DNA of 64,000 nucleotides from a virus. Lineage: Duplodnaviria; Caudoviricetes. The position numbers were made by a program, and so were the translations under genes. A model generated the notes under the pieces. The model did not search any database. It was given only the letters and a program-made list of their open reading frames with translations, and was not told the DNA's origin. The stretch covers positions 37,759 to 101,758 of the IMG/VR virus record IMGVR_UViG_3300029288_000110. One strand, given 5' to 3'. Each line of letters opens with the position of its first letter. Position 1 is the stretch's first letter. This document shows, piece after piece, positions 1-64,000 of this stretch.

Positions 1-1238
1 AAGAGAGCGAGTACGATTACGCTATCCATGCCAAGTACACGCCGGAGCCGACCGCTTGTATCCGATGCGGGGTTATCGGGCAACTATACCGGCATGGTAT
101 CAAGAGGCAACGATTCATGGACTTACCAGTTCACAACAAGCGTGTTGGCTTGATAGTGCATCGGCAGCGTTACCTTTGCCGAGCCTGCAAAAAGACCAGC
201 TTTCAACCATTGCCGGATGTGGCTGACCACCACTCGTCAACCAAGAGGCTTTTAGCCTACATCGGCAAGGAATCCATGAAGCGTACCTTTGTTGGGGTAG
301 CCGATGATACCGGAATCCATGAGCGGACTATCCGGCGTTTATTCGCTATCGAGGTAGCCCGATTAGACCAAGAGGTCAAATTCGAGACACCCCGATGGTT
401 GGGGATTGATGAAGTTCACCTTGTAAAGAAGGCAAGGTGTCTCTTGACCAACGTGGAGCAACGGACTGTCATTGATATGCTGGCAACCAGAACAAAAGAC
501 GTGGTTAGCCGATACTTGTACCGGATGCCCGACCGCCAGTACATCGAGCTGGTGGCTATGGATATGTGGCAACCCTACAGGGACGCAGTAAGGGATATTC
601 TACCGCAAGCCACAGTGGTCATAGACCGCTTTCACGTTATCCGGTTAGCCATTCAGGGCATGGACACGATACGAAAGGATACCAGGGCGAGCCTTACGGC
701 ACGTCAAAGCCGGACACTCAAGCGTGACCGCTATATTCTTTTCCATCGCCGGAGCGACCTTGACGAACAAGACCAGTTCATACTTGACCTGTGGTTAGGG
801 CAGTTCCCTATGCTTGGCAAGGCGTATCAGTTCAAAGAGGACTTCTGTGACCTCTGGATGGTCAAGGACAGGCAAGAAGCCATAGAGCGGTATGAAAACC
901 TTAAGGCGAGCATCCCGACCGAGCTACAGCCCGCCTTCAAGCCTCTGACAACGGCTGTAGGCAACTGGACAGGCGAGATATTCGCATGGTGGGACCATCC
1001 GGTAACAAACGCTTATACAGAGGCCATAGCAGGGCTTGTGAAGCTAACCAACCATGCAGGCAGAGGGTATTCGTTCAAGGCGATACGGGCAAAGTTGCTT
1101 TACTCTAACCTGCCGACCCCTCACAGACCAGTGTTTGACAGGTCATTGAAAGAGCGACCGCCCTTCATGCCACTGGAAGAAATTATAGATTACGGAGTTA
1201 AGTTTTCCACACTCCGCATAATGTTGGAAGGGGGATAG
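1..1238 (+). CDS. ISL3-family transposase (5' end cut by window edge)
   Basis: Zn finger, LGIDE, AMDMW, DRFHV and TNAYTE motifs; identical to the C-terminal part of 61261-62541. Confidence 0.95.
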   Translation, partial: ESEYDYAIHAKYTPEPTACIRCGVIGQLYRHGIKRQRFMDLPVHNKRVGLIVHRQRYLCRACKKTSFQPLPDVADHHSSTKRLLAYIGKESMKRTFVGVADDTGIHERTIRRLFAIEVARLDQEVKFETPRWLGIDEVHLVKKARCLLTNVEQRTVIDMLATRTKDVVSRYLYRMPDRQYIELVAMDMWQPYRDAVRDILPQATVVIDRFHVIRLAIQGMDTIRKDTRASLTARQSRTLKRDRYILFHRRSDLDEQDQFILDLWLGQFPMLGKAYQFKEDFCDLWMVKDRQEAIERYENLKASIPTELQPAFKPLTTAVGNWTGEIFAWWDHPVTNAYTEAIAGLVKLTNHAGRGYSFKAIRAKLLYSNLPTPHRPVFDRSLKERPPFMPLEEIIDYGVKFSTLRIMLEGG

Positions 1239-1276
1239 TTTGTTTGAATGCATTACACATCATACGCCGGAAAGCC
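1..1276 (+). mobile_element. ISL3-family element, copy 1 (left part outside window)
   Basis: 1-1276 appears identical to 61304-62579; the copies diverge right after ...GCCGGAAAGCC, which defines IRR. Confidence 0.92.
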
Positions 1277-1541
1277 TCTCTTTCTTGATAGCATTGGTTA
1301 CTCGCCATAGGTCGGCGGCATCCGCATTAAGGGCACTTTCGGCTTTCATGGCTCGCTCTGCCCATCGGTGTCTATTCCCTACCAGACAGGGGATACATTC
1401 ATACATTGTGCCGACTTCAAGGTAGTCTGGTGGTTTGCCAGCTTGTGGATGTGGATTCTTAGACATCTGCAACCCACATTTGGCACATAGTTTTGGCTTC
1501 GTTTCCACGCCCTTCGCCGAATTATCATTTTGTGTGTTCAT
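1260..1541 (-). CDS. small Zn-ribbon protein; its 3' end runs into the ISL3 IRR (probably truncated)
   Basis: AGGAGG RBS; CAKC and CIPC pairs. Confidence 0.6.
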   Translation of the reverse strand: MNTQNDNSAKGVETKPKLCAKCGLQMSKNPHPQAGKPPDYLEVGTMYECIPCLVGNRHRWAERAMKAESALNADAADLWRVTNAIKKERLSGV

Positions 1542-1556
1542 TTGCTCTTTCCTCCT

Positions 1557-1571
1557 GTTTGCCGAATAGCC
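1557..1571 (-). repeat. 15-bp exact inverted copy of the putative ISL3 left end (GGCTATTCGGCAAAC)
   Basis: Reverse complement equals 59679-59693. Confidence 0.75.
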
Positions 1572-1639
1572 CATAAATTTCCCCTGGGTACATTCGCAAA
1601 AGACCATATTTTGACAATTTGGTTTTATGTTTCATCTTA

Positions 1640-1667
1640 ACCTCCTACTGTATGTGGGATACTTACC
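1640..1667 (-). mobile_element. left end of a GGTAAGTAT-type gene cassette (partner end outside window)
   Basis: 28 bp identical to 5384-5411 (GGTAAGTATCCCACATACAGTAGGAGGT on minus strand). Confidence 0.8.
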
Positions 1668-1749
1668 TGCTTTCTTTATATTGGCCTGTAGCTTCTTGGA
1701 CTACCCTAAAGGCATTGACCGCAAAATCGTGTTCCTTTTTCTTAGTCAT
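1668..1749 (-). pseudogene. N-terminal fragment of a small basic IS-associated protein (MTKKKEHDFAVNAFRVVQEATGQ), interrupted by the cassette end
   Basis: Resembles the N-terminus of small 'histone H1-like' ORFs seen beside IS1-type transposases; starts next to a GGTAGTG end at 1762. Confidence 0.45.
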
Positions 1750-1827
1750 ACTACACACTACCTCATTAACTGGCAACCGCTTTACTTCATGATTTGTGTC
1801 CATATCTCACCCCCGATAGTTTATTCC

Positions 1828-2421
1828 CTAAATTACTACCCCACTTGGTTCAGCGACAAAACCAACCAGCATTAGCTTATCTCCATCTGGATTTTCCACA
1901 TCTGATGTGATATCTACGCAAATCTGGTCGTCATGGCTAAAAATAAAGGGGTTGGGAAAATAGCCCTCAGCAACCAAATTCGAGATATCACCGAATATTT
2001 GCTTAAACTCCCTCTCTATATAATCTGATACCTTCCAGTCTTTAATAACTTTCAATATAGGGATAAGCATATAAAGCTCCGTCAATTCAACTGCAAATAA
2101 CGGGTGATTTTTCATGCGGAATGATAAAGTGCTTACTTTCGGCTCGGTAGAGAGCTGCGCTATTTTGTAGAAACAATAGAACCTATTGATTTCTACTTCC
2201 TTCTCAAACCATACCGAAGAGGTATGGGCAAGCTGCGGCGGTGTCCTCCAGGAAGAAATGCCCATATCATTCGACATTATTTTCCTGACCGATATTTGTT
2301 GCGGTGGATAATGACAAATCTGACAAGCACGGTCAATTAAAGATTGTAAACAAGATTTTCTAAACAATTCCCTTTGATGAAGGGAGTTTTCCCAAGAAGG
2401 TATCAAATACTTTAACTCCAT
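1828..2421 (-). CDS. hypothetical protein
   Basis: 197-aa ORF with AGGAGG RBS; AT-rich. Confidence 0.7.
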   Translation of the reverse strand: MELKYLIPSWENSLHQRELFRKSCLQSLIDRACQICHYPPQQISVRKIMSNDMGISSWRTPPQLAHTSSVWFEKEVEINRFYCFYKIAQLSTEPKVSTLSFRMKNHPLFAVELTELYMLIPILKVIKDWKVSDYIEREFKQIFGDISNLVAEGYFPNPFIFSHDDQICVDITSDVENPDGDKLMLVGFVAEPSGVVI

Positions 2422-2435
2422 ATTGTTCCTCCTGC

Positions 2436-2669
2436 TTATATAAACGCCGGATGTTTTCTTACTGTAACAGCGGGGCGGCTGCCTCTTTCATTAGCAAGAA
2501 CTTGGTCCATAGTAGCGCTTCCCGTTTCGGGTACTTGAAATTCAAATACCCGATAGGCTTCCTTCCTTGCTTCGGCCAAGGCGTCCTTGATATCATCCGT
2601 ATTAGTAAGCACAATATATTCAATCGTGTCGCCCTGATACGTTGCTCTTGCTTCCCACAGCATATCCAT
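2436..2669 (-). CDS. hypothetical protein
   Basis: ORF packed in the minus-strand operon. Confidence 0.65.
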   Translation of the reverse strand: MDMLWEARATYQGDTIEYIVLTNTDDIKDALAEARKEAYRVFEFQVPETGSATMDQVLANERGSRPAVTVRKHPAFI

Positions 2670-2690
2670 TCTTCTATTTCCCCCCTCATT

Positions 2691-3086
2691 TTATGGCCGG
2701 TGGCCCCAATCAACTACTATCACAAACTGGTCATTATCTTCCCGGACGTGTCCGCCGAAAAGATACTTCCCATCCAATTCAACGCCTTTTTCCACGGCTA
2801 TGTAAATCCCTTCCTTCGAGGAGTAAACATCAAAGTGCTCGAAAATAGGCAGCATCAAAACTATACCATCGTCAATATAGAGCGGAATGAAAAAATCCAG
2901 CTTTATATTATCGTTTAAATACTGGTCAACAGTAAGCAGGAGCTGCACCTTCCCATCGACACACTGCGGCGCCTGGTCAGCCGTTATTTCCACATACGGC
3001 GCCCTGCAATCCTGGACTATGAAACCGACACAAACAACCAATACAGCGAAGAGTGCGACCGCTATAATTAACAGAGTCTTTCCCAT
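2691..3086 (-). CDS. membrane-anchored or secreted hypothetical protein
   Basis: N-terminal hydrophobic helix; GGAGG RBS. Confidence 0.7.
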   Translation of the reverse strand: MGKTLLIIAVALFAVLVVCVGFIVQDCRAPYVEITADQAPQCVDGKVQLLLTVDQYLNDNIKLDFFIPLYIDDGIVLMLPIFEHFDVYSSKEGIYIAVEKGVELDGKYLFGGHVREDNDQFVIVVDWGHRP

Positions 3087-3118
3087 TCAGCCTCCACGGT
3101 GAAAAATTACCGCCTAAT

Positions 3119-3301
3119 CTATTTACTCCTGACGGGTTCTAAATATTCGATTCTCCAATAAGTTACGGCATGTGGCTGGTCGGGAGTATATTTTAGATTT
3201 GTGATAATACTCCCCTCGGGTAATTCCAAATGAGGGATTTCTTCCTTGGAATAAAATGTTTTTCTTTCATATTCTACAGAGTTAATGATTATTTTATCCA
3301 T
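3119..3301 (-). CDS. hypothetical protein
   Basis: GGAGG RBS; 60 aa. Confidence 0.6.
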   Translation of the reverse strand: MDKIIINSVEYERKTFYSKEEIPHLELPEGSIITNLKYTPDQPHAVTYWRIEYLEPVRSK

Positions 3302-3327
3302 GAGTTTTCCCTCCTGACAGTATTACT

Positions 3328-3834
3328 TTACTGTCCCACCGACTCAAAACGATATTCTTTTGTTTCTATCATTTGAGCCCTTACATTTATTCTCAAATCA
3401 GATTGGTAAACTAGCACAGCTCCACAAAATGGACAATAGTTCAGTGTTGGTTTTCCATACCCACCCTAGGCAAATTCGATGGCTTTCATGCCGAACCTCA
3501 ATAAAGAGGATGCTCCAAGTGCCTCTTTTAATTTGTCGCAGCAATAAGAAGGCTCTTTACCTACTTTTGTCCCATCTCTATGTTGCATAGGCTCGACAAA
3601 TGTACTCCCCACCGAGGGCCAATCATCGCATGAGACGACAGTTGCGAAATAAACTATACATGCCTTATTCATTATATCCTCCGTACAGTACCCTAGACCT
3701 TTAGGCATTAAGTGAGCATGTCTATTGTTGAGTAGCCAGTAATGATATCCGCCCTTTTCCGGGAGACATTCGTTACAGTATTCCCACCGACCGAAGCGAA
3801 GCCATTTTAAAAATCGATAAAACCTTTCTTTCAT
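3328..3834 (-). pseudogene. Cys-rich protein with an internal in-frame TAG at 3466-3468
   Basis: Frame stays open 45 codons past the TAG, includes NYCPFCG and ends just before the next RBS. Confidence 0.65.
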
Positions 3835-3841
3835 ATCGGCC

Positions 3842-4696
3842 TCACTCCCAGTCCTTTAAAAACGGATGGTATTTGAATATTTCTGCATCAACCTCCGGCA
3901 TCCGGGGAGTGGTGTAGATATTCATCATTCCGCCGCCGGCCCACCGCAAGAACTGATACACCCTTGTCTGGTCCAGGATACGCTTCCCATCCGCCCCCCT
4001 TAACTCATCCAATACCGTCGCCAGGCCATGGCGGACACCGTGGTAGCATTTTTTAGGAACGAATTTCACCCCGGCGACATTAGCTATCTCATGAAAAATG
4101 GAGAAGCGGCGATTATACCCCACGGGAGGATAAGTGTATTTGAACACAAAGGGGGCGATTTGCTCCGGCACGTCATGCTCCCGCAGCATACCGCCTTTCT
4201 CCGTATGGATGATGATGGTTTTCTTATACGGATGAATATCTTCCGACCGGACGCCAAAAAGTTCTCCGACCCGAAGGCCATATGTTGTCGAGAGCGCTAT
4301 GGTGTTCAACCACTGGGGATTGGAGCTCTTCTTGGCAGTCAGTATGAGCGCCCGGATTTCTTCCGCACTGTAGGAAAAGCGTGAGGCGAGGTCAATCATC
4401 TGCCGGTTCACCTTGGGCAGCTTCACCGGCACCCTTAGCCCATACATGCGGAAGAGGCAGCCTATCGGACCCCTGATGATGTAGTTTACATACGTTTGGT
4501 CTCGATTCTTCTTCAGATAGTCGAGATAGGTATAAAGCACATCACGCTCCTGCCAGTTCTTTCCCTTGAGCCAGGTGAAGTAATCATCCACATGCGCCCT
4601 GTACTGGCTCTTGGTCGATTCGCTATAGTACTGGATTTCGTGCTCTAGCTCTTTAAATATGGACTTCCTGTCTGTTGGTATTTTTTCCGTAGTCAT
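3842..4696 (-). CDS. tyrosine recombinase/integrase
   Basis: Catalytic residues in GLRVGE (R), EKGG (K), HGVRH, LRW and IYT (Y). Confidence 0.9.
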   Translation of the reverse strand: MTTEKIPTDRKSIFKELEHEIQYYSESTKSQYRAHVDDYFTWLKGKNWQERDVLYTYLDYLKKNRDQTYVNYIIRGPIGCLFRMYGLRVPVKLPKVNRQMIDLASRFSYSAEEIRALILTAKKSSNPQWLNTIALSTTYGLRVGELFGVRSEDIHPYKKTIIIHTEKGGMLREHDVPEQIAPFVFKYTYPPVGYNRRFSIFHEIANVAGVKFVPKKCYHGVRHGLATVLDELRGADGKRILDQTRVYQFLRWAGGGMMNIYTTPRMPEVDAEIFKYHPFLKDWE

Positions 4697-4712
4697 TACT
4701 ACTCCTCTACCC

Positions 4713-4925
4713 TCAGCGTTTAAAAGTCTTCCTCTCATGCGGTTTCTTCCGCTGGTAAGTAGCCTCCAAGGAAGTCATCTTGGGATTCCAGTGATAATCA
4801 ATCACCATCACATCACAACCCAGTTTCTTCCTGATAGCGCTTGTAACAGCGGAGGACCCGCACCCGGGCGCCTCATCAAATTCCTCCATGGTTATAGTTA
4901 TCTTTTCCGTATCAATATATTTCAC
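4713..4925 (-). CDS. hypothetical protein
   Basis: ORF with GGGAG RBS between the tRNA and the integrase. Confidence 0.6.
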   Translation of the reverse strand: MKYIDTEKITITMEEFDEAPGCGSSAVTSAIRKKLGCDVMVIDYHWNPKMTSLEATYQRKKPHERKTFKR

Positions 4926-4937
4926 TTTTCTCCCTTT

Positions 4938-5025
4938 TGGCGGAGCGGGAGAGATTTGAACTCCCGGGAGCAGGCCCCAACGGTTTTCGAGACCGCCGCC
5001 TTAAACCAGACTCGGCCACCGCTCC
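4938..5025 (-). tRNA. tRNA-Ser(CGA)
   Basis: Cloverleaf GGAGCGG...CCGCTCC-GCCA, anticodon loop CTCGAAA, long variable arm, encoded CCA. Confidence 0.93.
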
Positions 5026-5035
5026 AATATTCTTT

Positions 5036-5411
5036 GGTAAGTATACCTTCATCTACAGTATTTCTTGAAATTGGCCATAATCCTCATCTTCAAGTTCTGC
5101 CATCTCTGAATCAGTCTCGAATTGGCAATTTTCGCATAGTCCACTTTTGTTGAAATCGAAAAATTCGTTGCCGCCCCAAAACTCACCACACATCCAACAA
5201 AAGCCCTCTGAATGGCAATGTTCGCCGCAATACCAAGATATATCATATGGCTTTTCGCTTGATTCCCAATCAACTAACCTACATTGGATGGTATCAAAGG
5301 AGCTGCAACCTTCATGTTCACAACGATGATTGACTTCAACTAACTCTCTCTGAATCATATCGCCAATTTCTTTAATCATTTCGACCTCCTACTGTATGTG
5401 GGATACTTACC
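5036..5411 (-). mobile_element. non-autonomous single-gene insertion cassette (376 bp)
   Basis: Ends GGTAAGTATCCC / GGTATACTTACC; perfect 8-bp direct repeat TATTCTTT at 5028-5035 and 5412-5419. Confidence 0.88.
5053..5379 (-). CDS. Cys-rich acidic Zn-binding protein (cassette cargo)
   Basis: CEHEGC, CGEHC, CWMC and CENC motifs; RBS supplied by the cassette end. Confidence 0.75.
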   Translation of the reverse strand: MIKEIGDMIQRELVEVNHRCEHEGCSSFDTIQCRLVDWESSEKPYDISWYCGEHCHSEGFCWMCGEFWGGNEFFDFNKSGLCENCQFETDSEMAELEDEDYGQFQEIL

Positions 5412-5439
5412 TATTCTTTTAGCCTCTCTCTAATCCTTC

Positions 5440-34817: not shown

Positions 34818-35789
34818 ATGTCTCTGAGAAACGTAAAGCTCTATAGCTATACCAGCCAAGTACAGATGGGTGGGTGGTGCAGCATTGTGTTAACCTTCGA
34901 TTATCTGGGCGGAGGAGCCCAGATAGAAACGTATTGCGCAATCGGAAACAATGGTATATTTGGTTTCAATGAGGTTATAAGCGCCAGCAATATCCGTGAT
35001 ATTCCCAGTGCTTCTTCATGGACAAAATTTTTCGTCTCGGCGTTAATTAGAATAACAGAAGAACTCGACCCAGCAAAAATCTATGATGTGTATGGAAAAG
35101 TCAGAGAAGTAGGTGGTGGGTGGAATATCTCTGATATTGCGGTAGATGCCGTATGGTTTGCTGGGATGGAAAGGGAAGACCAAACACTTGAAATAGATGT
35201 CTCTCCGGCAGATGGTGGATATGTTATCACAAATCCTGCAAGTAATGAGGGGAAGTCCAACTGGGTGAACGGTAATACGGGGACATTCCCCTACGGAACG
35301 GATGTTATAGTAAGAGCTGTCCCGTACAGTGGATTTAAGTTTGACCACTGGAGTGATGAGATTGTGGGTGGAGTAAGCACGAACAATCCGGCCCATGTTC
35401 AATCCATGACAGAACATCGGGCGATTAAAGCCCATTTTGTTTCGGAAACCGCTGATGAAGAGAAACTTATCATCAGCATTACCCCGACTGGAAAGGGTAG
35501 CGTAACGGCGTCTCCTCAACCCAATCATATTATCAGTAATGATTGGTATTACACTTATGGGACTATCGTTACTCTTACCGCTCACCCTATCAGTGGGTGG
35601 AAATTCAAAAAGTGGTCTGATGAGATATCCGGTGGCGTAAATACCTCCAACCCTGCACAGGTATCGGCCATGACGGAAACACGCACTGTTCTTTGTCACT
35701 TTGAAGAAATCGATGACGGAGGTAGTGATGATGGTGGAGGTGGTGATGGAGAATTCGATAATTTATCTGTAAAGATTAAGAGGGCTTGA
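34818..35789 (+). CDS. protein with two InlB B-repeat-like domains
   Basis: YGT.V...A.P..G.KF..WS twice. Confidence 0.8.
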   Translation: MSLRNVKLYSYTSQVQMGGWCSIVLTFDYLGGGAQIETYCAIGNNGIFGFNEVISASNIRDIPSASSWTKFFVSALIRITEELDPAKIYDVYGKVREVGGGWNISDIAVDAVWFAGMEREDQTLEIDVSPADGGYVITNPASNEGKSNWVNGNTGTFPYGTDVIVRAVPYSGFKFDHWSDEIVGGVSTNNPAHVQSMTEHRAIKAHFVSETADEEKLIISITPTGKGSVTASPQPNHIISNDWYYTYGTIVTLTAHPISGWKFKKWSDEISGGVNTSNPAQVSAMTETRTVLCHFEEIDDGGSDDGGGGDGEFDNLSVKIKRA

Positions 35790-35814
35790 CAAACGAAAAG
35801 GACTACATTAAACT
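35786..35814 (+). promoter_or_regulatory. sigma70 promoter of the putative capsid operon, overlapping the upstream TGA
   Basis: TTGACA-17-TAAACT. Confidence 0.65.
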
Positions 35815-35958
35815 AGGGTCGATGGTCCCCCGACGGGGGGGCAGAGGATAAAACTTAATAGGCGGGATGGCGCTCTTCCGTGAGGAAGGGGAAAAAGGCC
35901 ATCCCGCCTTTTCTTTTCTCCAGGAGAGCGCTACCGCCACCCAAGAAGGAGGAATCTC
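35815..35958 (+). promoter_or_regulatory. structured 5' leader with terminator hairpin and alternative helix
   Basis: 12-bp stem 35860-35871/35898-35909 plus U tract; alternative partner at 35923-35938. Confidence 0.6.
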
Positions 35959-36333
35959 ATGGGTAAGATTGAATGGAAAAACGTATTGGTGGGCGTAGGG
36001 GTAGGCGGTGCAGACGAAGTGCTCGGTTACTGGGATGAAAAATCCGGCAGAACGGGCCTTGGGACCGCCGTTAACATCGGGCGTGCCGCAATGGTAGCGC
36101 TCGGTGCCTTGGGCGTAGCGACCGGCTATTTCCATAAATATGCCGAGCCCGTCATGAATGCTGCGACCCCCCTGCTTACCAAGTCCGTTATCCAGGCTAT
36201 CCGCAACCAGGTGAATTCCGGCGCCACTACTGCTCGTCTCAGCCAAATGAATATCCCTTCCCGCAGGGTTATGTCAAGAGGCACAATATCGAGCGCAGGC
36301 CCGGGCTTTGAAAACTTACCGCCTATTTACTAA
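35959..36333 (+). CDS. putative major virion membrane protein
   Basis: Strong AGGAGG RBS; Gly/Ala-rich hydrophobic helices; basic tail. Confidence 0.7.
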   Translation: MGKIEWKNVLVGVGVGGADEVLGYWDEKSGRTGLGTAVNIGRAAMVALGALGVATGYFHKYAEPVMNAATPLLTKSVIQAIRNQVNSGATTARLSQMNIPSRRVMSRGTISSAGPGFENLPPIY

Positions 36334-59616: not shown

Positions 59617-59733
59617 ATGCCCTCCTAACTTGGTGAAATCTGAGTTGGGCTGGATGTTGGACTTCCGCAATTAGTTTCGGCTATTCGGCAAACTGTATAG
59701 AAACAGTATAGCATAATATTGTTGTACAGGGTA

Positions 59734-59762
59734 TTGACAAATAGGCAAACAGTGTGTATAAT
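59734..59762 (+). promoter_or_regulatory. consensus sigma70 promoter
   Basis: TTGACA-17-TATAAT. Confidence 0.8.
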
Positions 59763-59790
59763 AGGGTTAGAAAGTAAAGAAAAGGGGGAC

Positions 59791-59913
59791 ATGAAAATGC
59801 AATGCCCAACCTGCGGTAAAACCGCTAAGAGGATTAAGAGCAAGAAGTTCCCCGGCTGGTATTATTGCAATAACCCATCTTGCAATACAACCGCTTTTGA
59901 AAATAAGTCATAG
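59791..59913 (+). CDS. 40-aa Zn-ribbon peptide
   Basis: CPTC...CNNPSC; AGGGGG RBS. Confidence 0.6.
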   Translation: MKMQCPTCGKTAKRIKSKKFPGWYYCNNPSCNTTAFENKS

Positions 59914-59925
59914 GGAGGTAACATC

Positions 59926-60291
59926 ATGGGAATACGAGGACAAGGTAAGTTCACCACAAAGGCATCACGAAAACAAAACGATAAGTTCTTAGAGGAGTTC
60001 AAAACTCACCAATCAACATTCAAACAAGCCGATGTTGTACAAGTAGTCACTAAAGGTTGCGGGACATTCCCCGGACTTATTGTGGCTCGCATTTCAGTAA
60101 TGAGCGGGGAAACTGTCTATTCCGTAGCTGTTACACGCTATGGTGGTCTCTGGATTAAGGGCGACTGGGTTATAGATACCTACTGGAACCCGATTGGAGA
60201 CAAGGCACTTGAGCAAGATTATCCCGGCACGATGGAAGAGATTTTGAGCAAGTTACCAGTAATCAAAGCGTGGCAGGCGTCATTGCAATGA
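59926..60291 (+). CDS. hypothetical protein
   Basis: GGAGGT RBS. Confidence 0.7.
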   Translation: MGIRGQGKFTTKASRKQNDKFLEEFKTHQSTFKQADVVQVVTKGCGTFPGLIVARISVMSGETVYSVAVTRYGGLWIKGDWVIDTYWNPIGDKALEQDYPGTMEEILSKLPVIKAWQASLQ

Positions 60292-60584
60292 CAGACAATC
60301 AAAAGCAGGAAGTCATTAAATTACTAATCGGCTATTATCCTGCTGGTACATACCATGCAATACCAGAAGCCCTATTCCGGCTTGTCCGGCTACATGGCTT
60401 ATCCCTAAAGAAAGCCAAAGAGTTGCTATTAGAGGTTATACGACAAAACGGCTGGAGCATGTGCCCTAGTTCAATAGGAGCAATGACACTAGGAAATGTT
60501 AATGGAATGAGGGGCGAAAAGCGGATATTACAGTGGTACATACGGACTGATTGCTATTACACTCATTTTTATATCCTTAAATAG
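60288..60584 (+). CDS. hypothetical protein
   Basis: ATGA overlap with the upstream gene. Confidence 0.6.
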   Translation: MTDNQKQEVIKLLIGYYPAGTYHAIPEALFRLVRLHGLSLKKAKELLLEVIRQNGWSMCPSSIGAMTLGNVNGMRGEKRILQWYIRTDCYYTHFYILK

Positions 60585-60607
60585 GGTATCATAAAGGAGT
60601 CTTAAAA

Positions 60608-60793
60608 ATGTCTTCACCAAGTAACTACCCTCCCGGAGTATCAGGGTTTGAATTTCAAGTGAACCCGCCAGAGCGCTTACCCAAAGAACCTAGTAAAAGA
60701 CTCAAACCATGCAGTCATGCTATTAGCATTCCATATTGTTCTCATAGAACAACATCTGGTCTTTGCAGAGTAAGATGGTGCGATAAAGCGTAA
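60608..60793 (+). CDS. small Cys-rich protein (SNYPPGV motif)
   Basis: AGGAG RBS. Confidence 0.6.
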   Translation: MSSPSNYPPGVSGFEFQVNPPERLPKEPSKRLKPCSHAISIPYCSHRTTSGLCRVRWCDKA

Positions 60794-60845
60794 CTTATTA
60801 TGCAGGGGGTGACCCCATGCGGGGTAAAATAGATACGAATTTAGG

Positions 60846-61110
60846 GTGGTTACGAGTGGTCAAAACCAGACCAGTTAGCTACGGATGGTCAAACCGATAC
60901 CAGACCGCATTAGCTTTGGTGGTCAAACCGCTTAAAACCAGTCTAGACTTGATGGTTAGCCGGATAGCTTTTTGGCTGACCATGTTTACAAGACTGATTG
61001 TATCAGGGGGAGGGTTACCCTCTACCCCCCGACCCTTAAGCGTAAAAAGTGGGAGAACGTATTTGCTAGGTGCGTATGTGCTGGCAGTAGAAAACCCGTA
61101 TTTGCTGGAA
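60846..61110. repeat. two sets of iteron-like direct repeats separated by a GC hairpin
   Basis: TGGTCAAA at 60857, 60886, 60920; CGTATKTGCT at 61058, 61073, 61097; hairpin at ~61006-61030. Confidence 0.65.
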
Positions 61111-61120
61111 GTGAGAGCTA

Positions 61121-61264
61121 GTGAAAACCTGTAAAGAGCTAAAGTGTGTCTGCTTTGAGTGTCAGACACGGAAGAAAGACAGACCGAAATGCGGTATGTG
61201 TCCTGGGAGAATCGCCAAACCGGATTGTACAGGGCTTACCGTTTGCATTAAAGGGGATAAATGA
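61121..61264 (+). CDS. 47-aa peptide with eight Cys, coupled to the transposase
   Basis: Hand translation; its TGA overlaps the transposase ATG. Confidence 0.55.
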   Translation: MKTCKELKCVCFECQTRKKDRPKCGMCPGRIAKPDCTGLTVCIKGDK

Positions 61265-62541
61265 ACATCTTGAACTTGCCCGACTGGGAAGTCATAGAGC
61301 TTAAAGAGAGCGAGTACGATTACGCTATCCATGCCAAGTACACGCCGGAGCCGACCGCTTGTATCCGATGCGGGGTTATCGGGCAACTATACCGGCATGG
61401 TATCAAGAGGCAACGATTCATGGACTTACCAGTTCACAACAAGCGTGTTGGCTTGATAGTGCATCGGCAGCGTTACCTTTGCCGAGCCTGCAAAAAGACC
61501 AGCTTTCAACCATTGCCGGATGTGGCTGACCACCACTCGTCAACCAAGAGGCTTTTAGCCTACATCGGCAAGGAATCCATGAAGCGTACCTTTGTTGGGG
61601 TAGCCGATGATACCGGAATCCATGAGCGGACTATCCGGCGTTTATTCGCTATCGAGGTAGCCCGATTAGACCAAGAGGTCAAATTCGAGACACCCCGATG
61701 GTTGGGGATTGATGAAGTTCACCTTGTAAAGAAGGCAAGGTGTCTCTTGACCAACGTGGAGCAACGGACTGTCATTGATATGCTGGCAACCAGAACAAAA
61801 GACGTGGTTAGCCGATACTTGTACCGGATGCCCGACCGCCAGTACATCGAGCTGGTGGCTATGGATATGTGGCAACCCTACAGGGACGCAGTAAGGGATA
61901 TTCTACCGCAAGCCACAGTGGTCATAGACCGCTTTCACGTTATCCGGTTAGCCATTCAGGGCATGGACACGATACGAAAGGATACCAGGGCGAGCCTTAC
62001 GGCACGTCAAAGCCGGACACTCAAGCGTGACCGCTATATTCTTTTCCATCGCCGGAGCGACCTTGACGAACAAGACCAGTTCATACTTGACCTGTGGTTA
62101 GGGCAGTTCCCTATGCTTGGCAAGGCGTATCAGTTCAAAGAGGACTTCTGTGACCTCTGGATGGTCAAGGACAGGCAAGAAGCCATAGAGCGGTATGAAA
62201 ACCTTAAGGCGAGCATCCCGACCGAGCTACAGCCCGCCTTCAAGCCTCTGACAACGGCTGTAGGCAACTGGACAGGCGAGATATTCGCATGGTGGGACCA
62301 TCCGGTAACAAACGCTTATACAGAGGCCATAGCAGGGCTTGTGAAGCTAACCAACCATGCAGGCAGAGGGTATTCGTTCAAGGCGATACGGGCAAAGTTG
62401 CTTTACTCTAACCTGCCGACCCCTCACAGACCAGTGTTTGACAGGTCATTGAAAGAGCGACCGCCCTTCATGCCACTGGAAGAAATTATAGATTACGGAG
62501 TTAAGTTTTCCACACTCCGCATAATGTTGGAAGGGGGATAG
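61261..62541 (+). CDS. ISL3-family transposase
   Basis: CIRC/CRAC Zn finger, GIDE, MDMW, DRFHV, TNAYTE. Confidence 0.96.
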   Translation: MNILNLPDWEVIELKESEYDYAIHAKYTPEPTACIRCGVIGQLYRHGIKRQRFMDLPVHNKRVGLIVHRQRYLCRACKKTSFQPLPDVADHHSSTKRLLAYIGKESMKRTFVGVADDTGIHERTIRRLFAIEVARLDQEVKFETPRWLGIDEVHLVKKARCLLTNVEQRTVIDMLATRTKDVVSRYLYRMPDRQYIELVAMDMWQPYRDAVRDILPQATVVIDRFHVIRLAIQGMDTIRKDTRASLTARQSRTLKRDRYILFHRRSDLDEQDQFILDLWLGQFPMLGKAYQFKEDFCDLWMVKDRQEAIERYENLKASIPTELQPAFKPLTTAVGNWTGEIFAWWDHPVTNAYTEAIAGLVKLTNHAGRGYSFKAIRAKLLYSNLPTPHRPVFDRSLKERPPFMPLEEIIDYGVKFSTLRIMLEGG

Positions 62542-62612
62542 TTTGTTTGAATGCATTACACATCATACGCCGGAAAGCCATTAGATTCAGCTAATTCACC
62601 GGATTTATATAT

Positions 62613-63143
62613 GGTAAGTATCCCCCGATAGCCAGTAAAGGAGTGGAATGTTAAGTCAATTTAAAGGAGCCATTTTAGACAATTACAGAAAGCATCGTCT
62701 TTTGCTTTGGAGATTCTGGGATGACAGGCCAAAGATGCTATTTGTTGGTCTTAATCCATCAACGGCGAACGAGCTTCAAGATGACCCGACTATAAGACGC
62801 TTGTGTGACTTCGCCGAACGTTGGGGATACGGCGGTCTATATGCCTGTAATGTTTTCAGCCAGATAACCCCTTACCCCAAAGAGTTACTAGCTGAAACAG
62901 CTATTCATTCCGCTGATATCCATGCTATACAGATGGTTAATGAGCTTGTAGTTTTGGTTGTTTGTGGATGGGGAGACGGGATAGAAAAAGCCGCATATGG
63001 CATTGCCAGAGCTAACACAATTAAGTCACTTTTTAAAGAGCCAATGTGCTTTGGATTAACCGCCAAAGGAAACCCTAAGCACCCTGTACGTCTGCCGAAA
63101 GACACTGAATTAATGGAATACGGGTTATGAAGGGATACTTACC
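62613..63143 (+). mobile_element. non-autonomous single-gene insertion cassette (531 bp)
   Basis: Perfect 12-bp IR GGTAAGTATCCC/GGGATACTTACC; 8-bp direct repeat TTATATAT at 62605-62612 and 63144-63151. Confidence 0.9.
62648..63130 (+). CDS. DUF1643 family protein (cassette cargo)
   Basis: GLNPSTA...DDPTI, GNPKHP. Confidence 0.9.
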   Translation: MLSQFKGAILDNYRKHRLLLWRFWDDRPKMLFVGLNPSTANELQDDPTIRRLCDFAERWGYGGLYACNVFSQITPYPKELLAETAIHSADIHAIQMVNELVVLVVCGWGDGIEKAAYGIARANTIKSLFKEPMCFGLTAKGNPKHPVRLPKDTELMEYGL

Positions 63144-63283
63144 TTATATATTATATATAAGGAAGGAAGTAAGTAAACCTTAAACCCATAGTGCCCTGTG
63201 TGAGTGCGCGAGCGAGCGCGAGAAACAGAGCACTATCACACACCAAGGGGTAAGAGTAACCAAAAACGGGAGGAAAAAAGAAA

Positions 63284-63487
63284 ATGAAACTAAAAAATAG
63301 ACTACACAACCATCCCAAAATGGAGGAACAATTAGGACTAGACAAAGAGCATGTGATTATTGACAGCAAGCTATATGGAGAATTATTGCTGATATTCAGT
63401 GAGTTTGGGGAGTTTGTTTACACAATAGAGACTAAACCTCATTCTGTCCCCTCTCCCCCGCGCTATAATGCAAAACCTGCCCCGTAA
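63284..63487 (+). CDS. hypothetical protein
   Basis: GGAGG RBS. Confidence 0.55.
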   Translation: MKLKNRLHNHPKMEEQLGLDKEHVIIDSKLYGELLLIFSEFGEFVYTIETKPHSVPSPPRYNAKPAP

Positions 63488-63528
63488 AACAGTTTAGCTA
63501 TAGAATTTCCGCAATGCGCAAGAAACAC

Positions 63529-63557
63529 TTGACAAATCAGGCACAACGCCGTAAAAT
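63529..63557 (+). promoter_or_regulatory. sigma70 promoter
   Basis: TTGACA-17-TAAAAT. Confidence 0.7.
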
Positions 63558-63578
63558 CATGGGTAGATTCAACCAGTG

Positions 63579-63610
63579 CGCCCCAGGAGACATCCCGGGG
63601 CTTTTTTATT
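63579..63610 (+). terminator. terminator hairpin upstream of the tRNA
   Basis: GCCCC...GGGGC plus T run. Confidence 0.6.
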
Positions 63611-63622
63611 TATAGGCCTCAA

Positions 63623-63697
63623 CGCAGGGTAGAGCAGTGGCAGCTCGCGGGGTTCATATCCCCGAGGTCGGTGGTTCAACTCCATCCCCTGCTACCA
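63623..63697 (+). tRNA. tRNA-fMet(CAT)
   Basis: C1:72 mismatch, GGG/CCC anticodon stem, CAT anticodon, encoded CCA. Confidence 0.92.
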
Positions 63698-63706
63698 AAA
63701 TCAATC

Positions 63707-63738
63707 AGCCCCGTGCAAACGCCGGGGCTTTTTCTTTG
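63707..63738 (+). terminator. intrinsic terminator
   Basis: AGCCCCG...CGGGGCT plus T run. Confidence 0.7.
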
Positions 63739-63759
63739 CCCACAGAAAGGTTATCTATT

Positions 63760-64000
63760 ATGCCTATTAAACCGGGGCGTCCCTGCCGGCAGCCCGGCTG
63801 CCCCCACCTCGCAAAAGATAGGAGCGGCTACTGCCCGGAACATCTCACCCAGAGCCGCCAGCAGCTGGACAGGGAACGCCCTAACGCCAATCAGCGGGGC
63901 TATAATCACCGCTGGCAGCAGGCCAGCAAACAGCACCTGCGGGAACATCCCCTCTGCCGTTACTGCTTTGAAAAGCAACCGCCCGTCATCCGCGCCGCCG
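63760..64000 (+). CDS. HK97 gp74-type HNH endonuclease (runs off window)
   Basis: Hand translation MPIKPGRPCRQPGC...YCPEH...RGYNHRW...HPLCRYC. Confidence 0.85.
   Translation, partial: MPIKPGRPCRQPGCPHLAKDRSGYCPEHLTQSRQQLDRERPNANQRGYNHRWQQASKQHLREHPLCRYCFEKQPPVIRAA

Follow-up and report, generated by a model that had tools for sequence, protein, structure and literature searches.

Three stacked mobile-element ends at an ISL3 insertion sequence in a virus contig, and the case for serial insertion into one small gene

Insertion sequences (IS) nested within one another, together with IS-mediated deletions of adjacent DNA, belong to the established biology of bacterial IS, and IS elements are rare in the genomes of viruses. 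Among the units built with IS ends are the mobile insertion cassettes (MICs), whose type example is MIC231. The MICs, a concept cited in PMC4133298, carry cargo between IS ends, lack a transposase and are moved in trans; ISPpu12a is an ISL3-family element that harbors extra (passenger) ORFs (PMC4133298), and the transporter IS (tIS) has been defined in PMC9330008. The locus compared with these systems herein lies in the window, a stretch of 64,000 nucleotides that corresponds to bases 37759-101758 of one virus contig of 101,758 bp, on which positions are given as genome positions.

The window opens within an ISL3-type transposase gene, which belongs to the first of two identical 2,901-bp ISL3 copies arranged in direct orientation along the contig with 0 mismatches (genome 36134-39034, equivalent to window -1624..1276, and window 59679-62579). 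Each copy opens with the left end GGCTATTCGGCAAAC, after which come an arm of small genes (1.4 kb), the module bearing three ACGTATTTGCTGG repeats, the transposase and, finally, the right end ...GCCGGAAAGCC. The 426-aa ISL3 product matches DDE_Tnp_ISL3 (PF01610) of Pfam with E 1.5e-55 as well as Zn_ribbon_ISL3 and HTH_Tnp_ISL3 (PF14690, PF13542), and the terminal inverted repeats start with GGCT, where the IRL GGCTATTCGGC agrees with the reverse complement of the IRR, GGCTTTCCGGC, at 9/11 positions. The same ends are found in the related elements of L106 and L107. With its DDE_Tnp_ISL3 preceded by an N-terminal zinc ribbon and HTH, its GGCT ends, the 8-bp duplications at its phage-A site (ATTAGATT) and in L106 (TAAAGATT), and its internal passenger genes, the element resembles the transporter IS ISPpu12, whereas it differs in residing in virus genomes, in the 1.3-1.6 kb arm of small virus-type genes located between the left end and the transposase, and in the conserved module with three ACGTATTTGCTGG repeats by which this arm is closed. 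The three direct repeats at the close of the passenger arm occur in every transposase-less derivative too, and in L107 they directly precede the transposase ATG (3882-3987), which makes them candidates for an operator or for an inner site bound by the transposase. The stretch GGCTTACCG at 61234 was considered as an internal ancestral IRL and ruled out, being missing from L107.

Table 1. Coordinates of the features at the locus and of the complete units used for comparison (window positions unless a locus is named)
Feature	Position	Strand	Description
ISL3 copy 1, right part	1..1276	+	transposase to 1238; right terminal repeat ends ...GCCGGAAAGCC at 1276
Inner flank of ISL3 copy 1	1277..1284	.	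TCTCTTTC; duplicated at neither IS left end (8-mer scan)
Zinc-ribbon gene, codons 1-88	1278..1541	-	motifs NPHPxAGKP, CIPC, WAERAMKAE; cut by ISL3 right end
ISL3 left-end module	1498..1571	-	75 bp; IRL GGCTATTCGGCAAAC (1571-1557), AGGAGG, ATG 1541, 13 codons (M.TQNDNSAKGVE)
Cargo stub of GGTAAGTAT cassette	1572..1635	-	21 codons (MKHKTKLSKYGLLRMYPGEIY); ATG 1635; cut by IRL; flank AATTTATG
RBS-bearing terminal repeat of transposase-less GGTAAGTAT cassette	1632..1668	-	solo end, no tail-end partner
5' stub of conserved ~84-aa gene	1669..1750	-	ATG 1750, MTKKKEHDFAVNAFRVVQEATGQ...; stop TAA (1665-1663) from cassette end
GGTAGTG	1756..1762	-	overlaps GAGG ribosome site 9 nt before ATG 1750; not a mobile-element end
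Complete sister cassette	5036-5411		one gene; 8-bp duplication TATTCTTT
Zinc-ribbon gene, C-terminal piece	59618..59677	-	KLIAEVQHPAQLRFHQV...; tblastn P0001 aa 122-141, 85% identity, E 2.7e-6
ISL3 copy 2	59679..62579	+	IRL, promoter, 1.4-kb passenger arm, arm-end module, transposase 61261-62541, IRR
Arm-end module of ISL3 copy 2	61010-61108		three ACGTATTTGCTGG repeats at 61057-61108
8-bp target duplication	62580..62587	.	ATTAGATT, common to left flank of copy 1 (genome 36126-36133, window -1632..-1625)
Complete sister cassette	62613-63143		8-bp duplication TTATATAT
Complete transposase-less ISL3 derivative	L130		558 bp; perfect 8-bp duplication GAAACTAA
Complete transposase-less ISL3 derivative	L132:12762-13671		910 bp; perfect 8-bp duplication GGAATTTA
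Complete transposase-less ISL3 derivative	L135:643-1926		1,284 bp; perfect 8-bp duplication AATTTATC

The outer flanks of the two copies share ATTAGATT, and the inner flanks differ, with TTAGTTTC on the left of copy 2 against TCTCTTTC (5/8). The duplication is thus carried by the outer flanks. In the GC-rich tailed-phage block (phage A, consisting of genome 1-36133 and window 62580-64000) the IS is present as a simple insertion. A second replicon (virus B) occupies the ~58.4 kb that separate the two copies, and the order along the contig is tailed phage A - IS - 58.4-kb virus B - IS - tailed phage A.

Within virus B, a zinc-ribbon gene is found on both sides of the IS. It begins at the own ATG of the ISL3 left-end module (1541), and its open frame runs to 1260, the final 5 residues being IS-encoded. 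The product shares 92% identity with residues 1-88 of P0001 (154 aa); full-length relatives measure 122-154 aa and continue beyond AIKKE, and the close relatives all extend 35-65 residues past the point of the ISL3 cut. A C-terminal piece of 20 codons is encoded immediately beyond the left end of copy 2, ~33 codons having been deleted between the parts, and no target duplication is present (TTAGTTTC against TCTCTTTC). Because the two halves flank the IS, the IS is truly inside the zinc-ribbon gene and virus B forms one uninterrupted block apart from a single IS; that its other half is met 58 kb farther on is due to the order in which the contig is written. The J-domain gene starts at ATG 59616, and the zinc-ribbon stop lies 5 nt past it, constituting a well-formed overlap. 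Past the C-terminal piece, neither the right arm of the cassette nor an IRR, a cassette tail end or the rest of the 84-aa gene was found. The J-domain gene and a 197-aa neighbour returned no relatives in five related virus records, and matches to J-domain proteins in general were uninformative. P0001 and P0002, which derive from independent metagenomes, possess the same N-terminal module tag and the cassette C-terminal tail GSPxxPPPSEAIKP. An IRL is absent upstream of the distant zinc-ribbon members found in other viruses, so that the gene is an ordinary virus gene turned into cargo in this lineage. Exact IRR cores (GCCGGAAAGCC) located in distant zinc-ribbon genes (L116-L126, near 3050-3075) were rejected as ends since they simply encode the conserved AGKP motif, and the recurrence of GCCGGAAAGCC via AGKP codons constitutes a trap for motif scans.

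The first-pass annotation had recorded four co-oriented mobile-element ends in this region, each located inside the small ORF begun at the next outer end, and had proposed that an ISL3, an ISL3-type mini-cassette, a cassette and an IS1-like element were inserted each into the next. Three of these ends hold, namely the ISL3 right end at 1276, where the identity between the two copies ends exactly and which belongs to the transposase matched in Pfam as given above, the exact 15-bp copy of the IRL at 1571 (1557-1571), which otherwise occurs in the contig only at the two IS left ends, and the cassette end at 1667 (1656-1668), of which 29/29 tip nucleotides match a complete cassette. The three face the same way; the fourth, an IS1-like end at 1762, is not an end. 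The relation of ends to ORFs is correct for two of them, as the IRL interrupts the stub begun at ATG 1635 and the ISL3 right end interrupts the zinc-ribbon gene begun at ATG 1541. The mini-cassette turned out to represent a genuine mobile family, three complete copies of which are bordered by perfect 8-bp duplications. The nesting was recovered insofar as the ISL3 lies in the ISL3-type unit, this unit abuts the GGTAAGTAT cargo and the cassette cuts a host-type gene, and had to be abandoned for the outermost IS1-like element.

The 15-mer, which on the minus strand is an exact reverse-complement copy of the ISL3 IRL, is matched 0.19 times in shuffles even with 2 mismatches allowed. The left-end module that it opens aligns with the left ends of the IS, and the 13 codons of this module (M..QNDNSA.GVE) hold a second ATTCGGC motif. 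Six further DNA copies of the module with 85-90% identity were identified, two in L115, a 1.4-kb metagenome contig, and the others in the viral contigs L130-L133. The copies (n=7 including the window) start with the outermost G of the IRL, except in L132 and L133, where the start lies up to 8 nt farther out, and all of them diverge past codon 13, where different genes come next. Since seven module copies start at or near the outer end of the IRL and stop at codon 13, the 15-mer is a transposon end and not a chance match. A match of L107 to the left-end module was discarded as a generic ribosome site only. In exact-pattern scans, the joint of IRL and AGGAGG had no other copy in the viral collection, and the pattern of 1284-1311 gave 1 metagenome match (L115) and 0 in viral contigs.

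The three complete transposase-less derivatives (L130, L132 and L135) possess both ISL3 ends, including the true ISL3 right end, and lie in related virus genomes, 2/3 of them in records classed by IMG/VR as having direct terminal repeats; no transposase gene was found in their loci. They are constructed by a left module, a cargo 1 that ends in a conserved GSPxTPPPSEAxxP tail, the triple-repeat module, a cargo 2 occupying the slot where the transposase sits in the IS, and a right module of ~80-90 bp, and their left, arm-end and right-end modules align with those of ISL3. One such cassette recurs at 91-93% identity in two genomes whose flanking sequences are unrelated. Given this IS anatomy minus the transposase, the perfect duplications and the same cassette in unrelated flanks, the units are, judged by their sequences, ISL3-derived mobile insertion cassettes that form a mobile family, of which no description was found in a full-text literature search. 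The third ACGTATTTGCTGG repeat had been tried as the right boundary of the cassettes and was rejected, with no duplications there; the true right end lies one cargo gene farther. In their two ISL3 ends, their cargo, the lack of a transposase and the perfect 8-bp duplications, these units are like the known MICs, while they are unlike them in having two cargo slots split by the arm-end module and ends that extend into coding sequence, where they contribute an N-terminal tag of 13 codons, the GSP...P tail at the C-terminus and the ...PHSP tail.

In contrast with a MIC, the window copy (1277-1571) has no right half and so lacks the two ends that a MIC needs. It keeps the left module and the first cargo, has one flank only (AATTTATG) and no target duplication, and both an IRR-type partner and CATAAATT followed by GGCT are absent across the whole contig. 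Its flank AATTTATG resembles the targets AATTTATC and GGAATTTA of the sister cassettes. A 3,196-bp element between the inverted IRLs at 59679 and 1571 was also considered and ruled out, no duplication being present (TTAGTTTC against CATAAATT). A nest comparable to that of the window is found in L115, where a second IRL (IRL#2) cuts the zinc-ribbon cargo. The zinc-ribbon gene is struck by an ISL3-type end both in L115:1002-1444 and at window 1277-1284, at sites that are alike and purine-rich (GAAAAAGAG, AAGAAAGAGA), and it may be a preferred target of ISL3-type ends.

The terminal repeat of the GGTAAGTAT cassette (1632-1668) shares 92% identity with 5376-5412, rising to 100% over the last 29 nt (29/29 to 5384-5412), and the 12-mer GGGATACTTACC is present in 5 occurrences against 0.24 expected. 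Like the complete transposase-less single-gene cassettes (5036-5411), it exhibits the 29-nt identical RBS end and has sisters with 8-bp duplications; unlike them, it is represented by a single end, and its cargo breaks off after 21 codons. No tail-type end preceded by TGCTTTCT was found for it in the 102-kb contig, the contig contains no IS1595 transposase (PF12762), and an exact-pattern scan of the viral collection did not recover the 27-nt cassette RBS end a second time. A tRNA-Ser gene (4938-5025, minus strand) lies 10 nt from the insertion point of the complete cassette at 5036-5411.

The gene stub outside this end belongs to a family of ~84 aa, for which 137 matches of 82-95 aa align to the N-terminus only, several of them from records named Chloroflexota or Dehalococcoidia. 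The window encodes the first ~25 residues of the family (the gene being cut after about 28 codons), the contig lacks any counterpart of the C-terminal ~55 aa, and the stop codon of the stub lies within GGTAAGTAT. As the stub ends in the cassette and the C-terminus of the family is absent, the cassette end cuts a genuine conserved gene. With respect to the supposed IS1 end, the contig contains 10 occurrences of GGTAGTG, compared with 12.9 for shuffled sequence, which is the frequency of a chance 7-mer, and its 12-mer extension has no second copy in the contig. The IS1 transposase (PF03400) is absent from the contig in a search that detects an E. coli control, and the IS1 end gave no match near 1756-1762 at <=8 mismatches, which is a weak check. 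GGTAGTG is the ribosome-site region of the conserved 84-aa gene.

On balance, and with modest confidence, window 1277-1770 is considered to be the surviving near side of three serial insertions, whose far halves have been lost, into one small gene of virus B, which makes up most of the window. Assembly of the stack would have begun with the insertion of the GGTAAGTAT cassette, through its RBS-bearing end, into the conserved ~84-aa gene after about 28 codons. Subsequently, a transposase-less ISL3 derivative would have entered the GGTAAGTAT cargo after 21 codons with its 75-bp left module, and the intact ISL3 transporter IS would then have placed its right end in the zinc-ribbon cargo after codon 88. 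A later deletion would have removed the right arm and right end of the ISL3-derived cassette along with the remainder of the GGTAAGTAT cassette and two-thirds of the 84-aa gene at its 3' side, and a separate deletion of ~100 bp beside the IS left end would have erased the target duplication. Three junctions and three truncated genes are present in the window, the mobility of the ISL3 cassettes is evident from their complete copies, and the other half of the innermost gene lies outside the IS left end; the outer two layers would once have been complete nested insertions, whose far halves were deleted later. The locus agrees with nested bacterial IS in having elements within elements, co-oriented ends and lost target duplications, but it differs in its location in a ~61-kb virus genome and in its far halves, which are missing instead of displaced. 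The stack itself is most likely inert, non-functional debris. Only the ISL3, unlike the remnants in the stack, is intact and has been active recently.

Several findings weigh against serial insertion: neither of the two outer layers has a partner end or a duplicated target in the contig, each being represented by one junction, the overlap leading from the zinc-ribbon gene to the J-domain gene looks native, unlike a deletion joint, and the IS in virus B has no target duplication. The native-looking overlap fits an account in which the outer layers were never nested. Here the zinc-ribbon gene with its ISL3 left arm would have stood ahead of the J-domain gene from the start, and an adjacent deletion or inversion made by the transposase from the IRL would have taken out all DNA as far as codon 21 of a GGTAAGTAT cassette close by, which had been inserted independently in the 84-aa gene. 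Of the five insertions of the IS family, 2 (virus B and G001) are clearly without duplications and a third (L107) is ambiguous, which speaks for frequent rearrangement adjacent to the ends; as no target duplication exists at the IS in virus B or G001, rearrangement at an IS end could yield the same joints. The flank AATTTATG suits the target preference of the transposase under either model. This account nevertheless requires the transposase to act on an end whose partner is unaccounted for, and P0001 and P0002 carry the cassette tail, so that the gene is mobile cargo and its right part has been lost here regardless; it is regarded as the main rival, possible but unlikely. A merger of unrelated molecules at short repeats by the metagenome assembler is a still poorer explanation of the joints and is very improbable. 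The phage-IS-virus-IS-phage order is indeed the exact expectation of a loop in an assembly graph, and G001, which contains a run of N, has the same IS between flanks that do not match, but both IS flanks in virus B belong to one gene, which makes this joint genuine, and the arrangement of module and gene recurs in the independent metagenomes of P0001 and P0002. Moreover, repeats of 15 bp and 37 bp would be too short for misjoins at typical assembler k-mer sizes.

The scheme predicted by the first-pass annotation, in which four nested insertions are complete and their partner ends, in reverse order, and target duplicates stand immediately left of ISL3 copy 1, is scarcely tenable at all. It accommodates the three real co-oriented ends, each cutting the ORF begun at the next end, and it could draw on a degenerate cassette-type end situated 344 bp left of copy 1 (genome 35753-35790). 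The upstream sequence refutes it: the left flank of copy 1, expected to be TCTCTTTC, is instead ATTAGATT and pairs with the right flank of copy 2, and none of TCTCTTTC, CATAAATT, TGCTTTCT and TCATTAAC, the four predicted flanks, precedes an end in the 102-kb contig. The end at 35753 is likewise of the RBS type and belongs to a YopX-like gene of its own; its flank finds no match, and it is situated within the GC-rich block of the tailed phage. GGTAGTG stands at chance frequency. Concerning the missing ORF halves that had been expected upstream, one does exist, although to the left of copy 2 and not of copy 1, and with the loss of codons described above. No further IRL- or IRR-type cores or cassette tail ends were found above chance in the contig. 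Since the far halves of the two outer layers are absent, so is a complete nest, and for the serial-insertion reading preferred here we infer the outer nesting from the near sides.

Related elements extend the distribution of this ISL3 beyond the contig. L106, a viral contig, harbors an IS of 2,977 bp flanked on both sides by TAAAGATT as a perfect 8-bp duplication, L107, another viral contig, harbors one of 2,646 bp, and the content of the passenger arm varies across the three IS variants. The same IS recurs with 99.96% identity at another site in L114 (G001:C1, 1840-4761), where the flanks AAAAAGAA and GACATTAA are unmatched; the 8-bp duplication is present at the phage-A site (ATTAGATT) and in L106, and absent at the virus-B site and in G001. 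The right end of the G001 IS adjoins a 99.5% copy of window 6372->6002, in which it replaces the AT of the ATG. A ~90% identical transposase fragment at a contig end of a Dehalococcoidales MAG hints at the host; P0002 was not found among the 301 Dehalococcoidales genomes searched, and a search of public phage records with window 1277-4800 returned nothing.

As for the contig as a whole, the phage-IS-virus-IS-phage order could represent either a real cointegrate or single IS-IS crossover, or a loop of a circular genome drawn by the assembler on the shared repeat. That the contig is a real molecule, in which a complete ~61-kb tailless jelly-roll virus resides in a tailed phage via an ISL3 cointegrate or IS-IS recombination, is doubtful; equally tentative is the lesser proposal that the active ISL3 and two-slot transposase-less cassettes move translation-ready cargo among unrelated viruses of one host, probably Dehalococcoidia. 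If the contig were real, the stack at 1277-1770 would stand at one of two virus-virus junctions. Whichever of these holds, the sharing of an identical 2.9-kb IS by two unrelated viruses implies a recent transfer within one host, and it ties a tailed phage and a tailless virus to one host cell. On the preferred reading of serial insertion, one small gene of an uncultured tailless virus would record three insertion waves by two transposon families. The transposase-less ISL3 derivatives share three conserved modules with the passenger-carrying ISL3, and the ISL3-derived cassettes offer a testable route by which small accessory genes, together with a ribosome site and start codon, might travel among viruses.

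Several minor observations concern the surroundings of the two copies. A GC-rich phage gene contains an exact 11-nt IRR core at a distance of 690 bp from copy 1 on its left (genome 35435-35445, window -2323..-2313), probably a chance occurrence (~0.2 expected). Genome 35753-36110 (window -2005..-1648) comprises the degenerate RBS-type cassette end (CCAAGTAACTATCCC...ACAGTAGGAGG) followed by the YopX-like gene, which sits at the switch from GC-rich to AT-rich DNA; the ISL3 begins 26 bp past its stop, and no tail end is seen there. This degenerate end was examined as a partner of the end at 1668 and ruled out, both being of the RBS type with mismatching flanks. On the other side of the contig, AGTAAGTAAACCTTAAACCCATAG is found at window 63168-63190, 25 nt to the right of the DUF1643 cassette. 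It is similar to the tail end of a cassette and may be the relic of another one.
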